A DNA stretch of 32,000 nt from Deinococcus radiodurans R1 = ATCC 13939 = DSM 20539 (GTDB taxonomy: Bacteria; Deinococcota; Deinococci; Deinococcales; Deinococcaceae): NCBI RefSeq assembly GCF_000008565.1, contig NC_001263.1, positions 144,694 through 176,693 of the forward strand, in the 5' to 3' direction. Positions within the stretch are counted from its first letter, which is position 1. The number at the start of each line of letters is the position of its first letter. Shown in pieces: positions 14,480 to 15,511 of this stretch. The position numbers and the translations under genes were made by a program. The notes under the pieces are model-generated. The model did no database searches, was not told the origin of the DNA, and saw only the letters and a list, made by a program, of their open reading frames with translations.

Positions 14480-15511
14480 ATGCTGATTCTGGATGAAATG
14501 CAGGCGCGCGGCCACGAGAGCCTGAAGCTGCTGCACCACGCGCCCAGCGGGCTGCGCGGCGTCCTGGCGGTGCACTCGCGGGTGCTGGGGCCAGCCATCG
14601 CGGGCGTGCGGCTGCGCGAGGAAGATGAGGAGCTGGCGGTGCGCGGCGCCCTGGCGCTGTCCGAGAGCCTGACGCTCAAGGCGGCGCTCGCCGGGCTGAA
14701 CTACGGCGGCGGTGCCTGCGTGCTGCTGATGCCCGAAGCCGGGGTGGAAGACCCGCACGCCCGCGAGGCGCTCTTCCGCGCGCTGGGGCGGCAGGTGCAG
14801 CACATGAACACCCGCGTGGTGCTGACCGAGGACATCGGGGTCACGCCCGCCGACATCGCCTTTGTCGCGCAGGAAACGCCCGCCACGCTCGGCATGAACA
14901 CCGATACCAGTTCGGTGACCGGTTACGGCGTCTACCGGGGCATGAAGGCGGCGGCCAAGCACGCGCTCGGCGCCGAGAGCCTGCGCGGGGTGCGGGTGGC
15001 GATTCTGGGGGTCGGCGCGGTGGGGCGCACGCTGGCGCAGCACCTCAGCCGCGAGGGGGCCAAGCTGACGGTGGCCGACTTCCGGCCCGACCGGGCGCAG
15101 GCGCTCGCCGAGGAACTCGGCCACGTGACGGTGGTGCCGGTGGGCGAAATTTTCGACGTGCCGTGCGACGTGTTCGCGCCCTGCGGCTTCGGTCACTCGG
15201 TTCAGAGCGCCGACGTGCCCCGGCTGCAATGCCGCCTGATTGCGGGTGGCGAGCACCACCCGCTGACCCGGCGCGGCGAGGAAGCGGTCAAGGAAGCCGG
15301 CATCATGTACGTGCCCGACTTCGCCATCAACTCGGCGGGGCTGATCGCGGCGGCCACCGGGGTCAACATGGACCAGGCCGGGGAGCGGGTCTATCAAACG
15401 GTCAGCCGCATCATGAGCGTCGCCACGCAGTACGGCAAGCCGCCGCACGTGGTCGCCCGCAAGATGGCCGAGCGCCGTATCGACCTGATCGGCAGTCTGG
15501 TGCACGTGTGA
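14480..15511 (+). CDS. Glu/Leu/Phe/Val dehydrogenase-family protein (LeuDH-like) lacking the catalytic lysine
   Basis: Collinear with leucine dehydrogenases ([31 protein letters not shown], Rossmann GVGAVG). The active-site motif reads LNYGGGACV instead of GGGK. GGGAGG lies upstream of ATG 14480. Confidence 0.85.

Follow-up and report, generated by a model that had tools for sequence, protein, structure and literature searches.

Leucine dehydrogenase and its relatives

[quoted passage not shown] Two asparagines of LeuDH and phenylalanine dehydrogenase (PheDH), N261 and N262, contact the substrate carboxylate as well as the cofactor (PMC6033044). When Lys80 of the Bacillus subtilis LeuDH Bcd is mutated to alanine, the protein still forms a hexamer, but dehydrogenase activity is absent and there is no complementation in vivo (PMC12181280). 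The scaffold has also been re-targeted by engineering, as in the amine dehydrogenases of the K68S/N261L type, which were obtained from LeuDH and PheDH by changing N261 and the pocket (PMC6033044).

In Thermus thermophilus, ADLP is an alanine dehydrogenase (AlaDH)-like, NAD+-sensing pseudoenzyme that binds NAD+ and NADH and inhibits the CoA transferase encoded alongside it; in the ADLP clade the catalytic Lys73 is replaced by Ala, Ser, Gly, Asp or Thr (bioRxiv 10.1101/2025.10.31.685773). The pseudoenzyme regulators described in Thermus comprise ADLP, GdhA and a homologue of APRT (bioRxiv 10.1101/2025.10.31.685773). GdhA (PDB 3aoe), which unlike ADLP belongs to the ELFV family, has no catalytic activity and acts as the regulatory subunit of a glutamate dehydrogenase, GdhA-GdhB, with the APRT homologue as an accessory protein.

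A LeuDH-like protein of Deinococcus radiodurans

The window analysed here is the whole stretch of 32,000 nucleotides from position 144,694 to 176,693 of the Deinococcus radiodurans R1 contig NC_001263.1, and coordinates are counted from its first letter. At 14480-15511 its plus strand encodes a LeuDH-like protein of 343 residues (P0001), whose ATG at 14480 lies 7 nt downstream of a Shine-Dalgarno sequence read as GGGAGG (14467-14472, plus strand) and whose N-terminus (MLI...) agrees with those of its homologues. Both Pfam domains of the ELFV family are found above their gathering cut-offs, the N-terminal domain PF02812 with 51.3 bits (E 1.3e-13, cut-off 25.3) and the NAD-binding domain PF00208 with 67.9 bits (E 1.4e-18, cut-off 23.4). 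The alanine dehydrogenase family PF01262 matches the Rossmann segment only and stays below its cut-off (20.1 bits against 23), while the best curated NCBIfam equivalog, NF035922 for the tryptophan dehydrogenase ScyB, reaches 194 bits and is likewise below its cut-off of 600. The best matches among solved structures are LeuDHs (E about 1e-64 to 4e-68), with phmmer E-values of 1e-66 to 4e-68 for 8gxd, 8hpe and 6acf. Across the LeuDHs 8gxd, 1leh, 6acf and 8hpe the identity is 36-39% over the full length and the fold is the same (TM 0.81-0.89). An AlphaFold2 model built from 49 clade sequences (pLDDT 92, pTM 0.90) predicts the two-domain LeuDH/PheDH fold and matches both LeuDH 8gxd and the closed PheDH ternary complexes 1bw9 and 1c1x with a TM-score of 0.89. 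Family matches, structures and model thus agree with the original prediction, made from the DNA alone, of a LeuDH/ValDH/PheDH-like protein with a Rossmann GVGAVG motif.

Residue equivalences are given here in the numbering of Geobacillus LeuDH (6acf), in which Lys67 corresponds to K68, Asp118 to D115, Glu258 to A260, His259 to N261, His260 to N262 and Leu288 to V291. In the translation of 14480-15511 the LTLK motif ends at Lys67 (codon 14678-14680, plus strand), Ala79 is followed by Cys80 and a valine, GVGAVG spans residues 177-182 (15008-15025, plus strand), and the block AGGEHHPL contains Glu258, His259 and His260. In the phmmer alignments to LeuDH structures, Ala79 (codon GCC, 14714-14716, plus strand) stands opposite Lys80 of the GGGK motif with no gaps nearby, so that the catalytic lysine's replacement, predicted at this very codon, holds in a gap-free alignment to solved enzymes. 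A register shift or a compensating lysine is ruled out, since the GGGA alignment is free of gaps and the only invariant lysines of the clade, K67 and K156, are both shared with canonical enzymes; the return of a lysine through such a shift had been named in the original prediction as an outcome that would overturn it. A sequencing error or a strain-specific mutation is excluded as well, the lysine being missing in 94/94 clade sequences.

The elements that bind NAD are retained, namely the GxGxxG motif (with G177 and G182 invariant and G179 in 93/94 clade sequences), Asp200 at the end of β2 (codon 15077-15079, plus strand), which is invariant in the clade and keeps the NAD-ribose aspartate of LeuDH, as well as Thr147, Cys235 and Asn284. 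The amino acid pocket is mostly retained too: Lys67, Asp118 (codon 14831-14833, plus strand), Ile40 and Leu288 keep the carboxylate-binding K68, D115 and the hydrophobic side-chain pocket of LeuDH, and within the clade the pocket residues are conserved as much as the NAD site. By contrast, six changes at the substrate and nicotinamide sites are fixed or nearly fixed (K80 to Ala or Ser, A81 to Cys, G41 to Ala, A113 to Thr, A260 to Glu and N261 to His), to which G289A is added as a further change. The Deinococcaceae protein also differs from LeuDH by a clade-specific insertion of seven residues after the K80 strand, which carries a conserved His93, and by a clade-specific deletion of six residues in the SPxFGSSGNPS loop. 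In place of A260-N261-N262-Q of LeuDH it has E258-H259-H260-P261 (15251-15262, plus strand), as the alignment to 6acf bears out for the ANN-to-EHH change noticed earlier.

Among the elements of a functional Leu, Val or Phe dehydrogenase, K68 with D115 and GxGxxG with the acidic residue at the end of β2 are present here, and the GGGK lysine (K80 in LeuDH, K78 in PheDH) and the ANN block are missing. Because Lys80 is the general base and Bcd K80A is inactive, the canonical Lys80-dependent mechanism is, judged by the residues present, closed to the LeuDH-like protein, which is therefore unlikely to be a canonical branched-chain amino acid dehydrogenase. Compared with the engineered amine dehydrogenases, it shares the changed N261 and pocket but shows the reverse with respect to the two lysines: K80 is present and K68 gone in the engineered enzymes, while the Deinococcaceae protein keeps K68 and loses K80.

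Conservation and phylogeny of the clade

About 100 close relatives with 52-96% identity are found among 5.8 billion clustered proteins, and the named ones belong to Deinococcus or Deinobacterium, D. radiophilus being among those at roughly 66%; below them the identity falls abruptly to ~40%, the level of ordinary LeuDHs. Within the clade, position 79 is Ala in 91/94 and Ser in 3/94 sequences, whereas 155/167 non-clade representatives have Lys, so that the substitution is conserved across Deinococcus, a point that the original prediction had marked for checking. Lys67, Cys80, Asp118, Asp200, Glu258, His259 and Pro261 are invariant in all 94 clade sequences. In the same columns of the 167 non-clade representatives, Ala, Ser or Thr stands at Cys80, Ala at Glu258 (164/167) and Asn at His259 (160/167). 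When 1.84 billion representatives were searched with a profile, the clade came out as one cluster at 50% identity with 593 bits, and the next full-length protein scored 285 bits. In a maximum-likelihood tree, obtained with the quick search version of the method, the clade is monophyletic with an SH-aLRT support of 100; its stem measures 0.75 substitutions per site, and no sister group is resolved. A search of the ESM Atlas returned generic ELFV clusters only.

Among 201 scanned genomes from the phylum, the clade is found in Deinococcaceae only. All 82 genomes from the genus of D. radiodurans carry the gene, as do 88/91 Deinococcaceae genomes, with no stop codons seen inside the clade gene matches; in a second family (probably Thermaceae) the count is 0/57 genomes. 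A third family has canonical forms only, at ~40% identity, with GGGK and ANN in the two that were checked. Pairwise dN/dS is 0.14-0.25 for the LeuDH-like gene and 0.10-0.14 for udk, and the LeuDH-like gene is under purifying selection. Alignments, model and tree together identify the product as a Deinococcaceae-specific descendant of leucine dehydrogenase with the whole two-domain fold predicted to be in place.

The protein had been called a paralogue of LeuDH, which does not fit the D. radiodurans genome (99.75% complete): no other LeuDH-type gene was found in it, and its only two distant ELFV matches, which align along part of their length with 28-32% identity, are presumably glutamate dehydrogenases. 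This also sets the protein apart from T. thermophilus GdhA, which pairs with its active paralogue GdhB, while D. radiodurans has no active LeuDH for the LeuDH-like protein to pair with, and the identity to 3aoe is only ~21%. The two are alike in being ELFV members, the role of GdhA being regulatory, and in that an amino acid dehydrogenase fold is linked to a protein of the nucleotide salvage type.

Genomic context and the link to udk

The LeuDH-like gene is followed by udk for a uridine kinase of 210 residues (15508-16140, plus strand; PF00485 E 8e-45; NCBIfam NF004018 288 bits, cut-off 180), by a gene for a DUF5693 membrane protein (16185-18107, plus strand; PF18949 E 1.9e-131), and by a gene for a csaB-type polysaccharide pyruvyl transferase (18118-19095, plus strand; PF04230 E 1.3e-39), which by synteny is the last gene of the conserved cluster. 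The GTG start of udk overlaps the TGA stop of the LeuDH-like gene (15509-15511) in the sequence GTGA at 15508-15511 on the plus strand. Since no other start codon ahead of the P-loop could serve udk and this GTG has no strong Shine-Dalgarno sequence before it, translational coupling from the LeuDH-like gene to udk is plausible in D. radiodurans. The overlap proposed originally is real, but to conclude from four nucleotides that the two proteins are made stoichiometrically over-reads it.

Upstream, a divergent spacer (14174-14479) holds no known RNA element, and its sole promoter-like site is on the minus strand; a search for a riboswitch or leader in 14100-14560 gave no Rfam match at E<=1. No branched-chain 2-oxoacid dehydrogenase (BCKDH) or transaminase pathway genes are found in the neighbourhood, and no conserved upstream partner was found in related loci. 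The 458-aa gene beyond the spacer (12797-14173, minus strand) has a weak TPR match only and is missing as a neighbour in the closest related genome (L004), where its place next to the LeuDH-like gene is taken by ribH, immediately upstream.

Among 48 loci surveyed from Deinococcaceae species, udk directly follows the LeuDH-like gene in 46, that is, wherever udk is found downstream. The junctions comprise 22 NTGA overlaps, one overlap of 1 nt and 22 spacers of 5-187 nt, the udk start of one locus counted among overlaps or spacers being uncertain (L009) and no usable udk start being found in another (L032). The NTGA overlap is seen also in clade members at 62-69% identity. DUF5693 and csaB come after udk in most of the 48 loci. 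From this gene order, the LeuDH-like gene is probably co-transcribed with udk in the usual case, at the head of a udk-DUF5693-csaB cluster, and in about half of the species it would also be translationally coupled.

The order udk then DUF5693 occurs also without the LeuDH-like gene, in two Deinococcaceae genera and in one genome of the second family (L053, L054, L055). This indicates that the LeuDH-like gene joined an older cluster and, given the genome of the second family, that udk was already linked to the cell-envelope genes for DUF5693 and csaB before it arrived. By ORF coordinates, udk and DUF5693 overlap by 4 nt in two of these loci (L053, L055). Some other Deinococcaceae have udk and lack the LeuDH-like gene.

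Conversely, five Deinococcus genomes that are 98-99% complete (G055, G079, G071, G082, G091; loci L136-L145) keep the LeuDH-like gene at 66-68% identity without udk. A search for Udk or PF00485 finds no match in these five genomes, while the same search finds the family in the D. radiodurans and T. thermophilus controls. The two of the five proteins that were read fully have GGGAC and EHHP intact. The genomes of this subclade measure 1.9-2.9 Mb and contain DUF5693 elsewhere, ~52 kb from the LeuDH-like gene where both are on one contig. In this subclade the sole conserved neighbours of the LeuDH-like gene are glpX and a gene for a divergent 700-aa protein, which has no Pfam or NCBIfam match and is unrelated to the product of the 458-aa gene upstream in D. 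radiodurans. Since these five genomes keep an intact gene, Udk cannot be an obligate partner, and the function of the LeuDH-like protein does not require Udk.

The only candidate for a natural fusion with Udk, a 568-aa protein from a public assembly (P0099), was rejected as a frameshift product with a scrambled middle. Past the frameshift the reading frame meets no stop, a common situation in high-GC DNA, and continues in-frame into udk, which creates a spurious fusion in the database.

The pairing of the two genes suggested originally therefore holds in part. Adjacency is conserved in 46/48 loci, whereas the NTGA overlap is found in 22/48 only; the five genomes without udk, the older udk-DUF5693 adjacency and the presence of udk elsewhere without the LeuDH-like gene speak against a functional connection. 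A functional partnership with Udk is at most weakly indicated.

Possible functions

We tentatively favour a reading in which the LeuDH-like protein may have been re-purposed but remain a catalyst, as an NAD(H)-dependent oxidoreductase with His259 and Glu258 in the role of Lys80. Its substrate would be a hydrophobic 2-substituted carboxylic acid. His259, at the N261 place that contacts carboxylate and cofactor and near the former Lys80 amine, would serve as the acid/base, with Glu258 possibly backing it, and hydride transfer would occur without lysine-assisted hydrolysis. Examples of such chemistry would be the interconversion of 2-oxo and 2-hydroxy acids, imino-acid chemistry, or a deamination with a relocated base. 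In favour of catalysis, K80 and N261 are lost across the clade (n=94) while K68, D115 and the NAD motifs are kept, and two new polar residues, E258 and H259, are invariant at a position of carboxylate and cofactor contact (PMC6033044). The purifying selection, the single tight monophyletic clade and a ligand pocket preserved as well as the NAD site point in the same direction. Other Lys-less representatives gain no new polar residues, whereas the Deinococcaceae clade gains the invariant Glu-His pair. Furthermore, the intact gene in the five udk-less genomes fits a stand-alone function better than a Udk-bound subunit. Against catalysis stands the finding that genuine LeuDH is dead when K80 is replaced by alanine (PMC12181280), and the effect of Glu258 beside the nicotinamide could rather be to perturb or adjust how the cofactor binds. 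Pathway genes for BCKDH or a transaminase are missing nearby, and the gene's conserved tie to that of a metabolically unrelated enzyme, in many loci with an overlap, is like that of the inactive NAD+ sensor ADLP to its CoA transferase in Thermus.

That resemblance leads to a second reading, the main alternative and a less likely one, in which the LeuDH-like protein would be a non-catalytic pseudoenzyme in the manner of Thermus ADLP and GdhA. It would bind NAD+/NADH, its former active site perhaps also taking up a branched-chain amino or oxo acid, and would regulate Udk, where there is one, or another partner. As in ADLP, an amino acid dehydrogenase homologue from the same phylum forms a separate clade that has a small residue (Ala or Ser) instead of the catalytic lysine but retains its NAD(H) site, and its gene adjoins that of an unrelated enzyme in what appears to be one transcription unit. 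The sister lineage Thermus has three known pseudoenzymes of this sort (bioRxiv 10.1101/2025.10.31.685773), and Bcd K80A shows that the LeuDH fold without the lysine can be folded but inactive (PMC12181280). The adjacency in all 46 loci with udk downstream, with the 4-nt overlap in 22, would suit a regulator of Udk, and Glu and His by the nicotinamide could discriminate NAD+ from NADH. However, ADLP belongs to the AlaDH family, so that the comparison is one of analogy and not of homology; moreover, the inactivity and the partner of ADLP were shown by experiment, while the Deinococcaceae protein is known from sequence. In addition, the neighbouring udk is dispensable for retention of the LeuDH-like gene, as the five near-complete udk-less genomes show, udk and DUF5693 are adjacent also where the LeuDH-like gene is missing, and a genuine Udk fusion was not found. 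A substrate pocket that is fully conserved and has acquired new invariant polar residues likewise argues against the loss of catalysis.

It is improbable that the protein is still a working dehydrogenase for Leu, Val, Ile or another L-amino acid, with the general-base role of Lys80 moved to His259 by catalytic-residue migration. In favour of such a migration, the shared contact with the substrate carboxylate places K80 and N261/N262 near each other in space (PMC6033044). It would also agree with the retention of K68 and D115 together with that of the NAD site and of the hydrophobic pocket, as well as with the gene being the sole one of LeuDH type in its genome. Pseudomonas LeuDH orthologues in which K80 is replaced by Thr or Glu still precede E1alpha, E1beta and E2 genes, which hints that some Lys-less forms may stay in catabolic use. 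On the other hand, K80 is described as essential (PMC6033044) and its replacement by alanine kills Bcd activity (PMC12181280). The six coordinated pocket changes, the insertion and deletion of seven and six residues and the long stem branch also speak against it, BCKDH genes are missing from the neighbourhood, and the best NCBIfam equivalog stays far below its cut-off.

A decaying, functionless relic of LeuDH, for which only the loss of catalytic residues speaks, is effectively refuted by the presence of the gene in nearly all Deinococcaceae genomes, its 53-96% identity, its low dN/dS, the lack of internal stops seen and the invariance of the new residues; this conservation fits the 'non-catalytic or re-purposed' protein of the original prediction rather than decay.

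Returning to the favoured oxidoreductase and to its sensor alternative, it is conceivable, though not likely, that the protein is something new to the family. It would then represent either a natural re-invention of the active site on the LeuDH scaffold, with His259/Glu258 in the place of Lys80 and NAD(H) chemistry new to the ELFV family (e.g. 2-oxo/2-hydroxy or imino-acid reduction), or a new ELFV-fold sensor of NAD+/NADH (and Leu) that controls pyrimidine salvage or cell-envelope genes.

Lysine loss elsewhere in the family and implications

The catalytic lysine is missing, with Ala, Ser, Gln or Met in its place, in 12/167 non-Deinococcus representative clusters of LeuDH-like proteins (P0142, P0147, P0153, P0154, P0156, P0160, P0172, P0192, P0225, P0233, P0261 and P0262), a fraction that may be biased upward because the query profile was built from the Lys-less clade. 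In these 12 representatives K68 is also lost in five and N261 in four, and none gains the Glu-His pair. Two of them (P0142 and P0156) have G41A, A81C and A113T in common with the Deinococcus clade. Where members of the Lys-less clusters carry a name, they belong to Pseudomonas, Nonomuraea or Candidatus Coatesbacteria.

The Pseudomonas group (L056-L063, with the match at 6001-7020 and the lysine site near 6195, and L066), which is P. graminis by cluster names and consists of proteins 90-100% identical, has GGGT at the catalytic lysine and is orthologous to P. aeruginosa LeuDH 7vid, which has GGGK. P. fulva has GGGE at this site, and in both forms ANN and the rest are intact. In one locus (L056) the Lys-less LeuDH gene is immediately followed by those for E1alpha, E1beta and E2 of a 2-oxoacid dehydrogenase complex. 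In Pseudomonas the 'essential' lysine has therefore been lost recently and independently, in an operon for catabolism. Some 1 kb upstream of this LeuDH-like gene (L056:1523-4995), two adjacent ORFs carry by annotation the dermonecrotic-toxin N-terminal domain ToxA_N (PF20178).

Our search of the literature on Deinococcus LeuDH and on ELFV pseudoenzymes found no paper on the Deinococcaceae Lys-less protein, and public databases label it 'leucine dehydrogenase' or 'branched-chain amino acid dehydrogenase'. In all probability this LeuDH label is mistaken, with consequences for metabolic reconstructions of a radiation-resistant model genus that would then have no LeuDH. With Lys80 gone and a Glu-His pair placed beside the nicotinamide, the clade offers a clean and strongly conserved natural experiment on a scaffold widely used in biocatalysis. 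The recurrent loss of the lysine in LeuDH-like clusters, including the Pseudomonas group, points to a wider uncharacterised class. If the Deinococcaceae protein is active, the chemistry of the ELFV family would be widened; if it is inactive, the dehydrogenase-like sensors that have lately been reported from the sister genus Thermus would gain a member of ELFV type.
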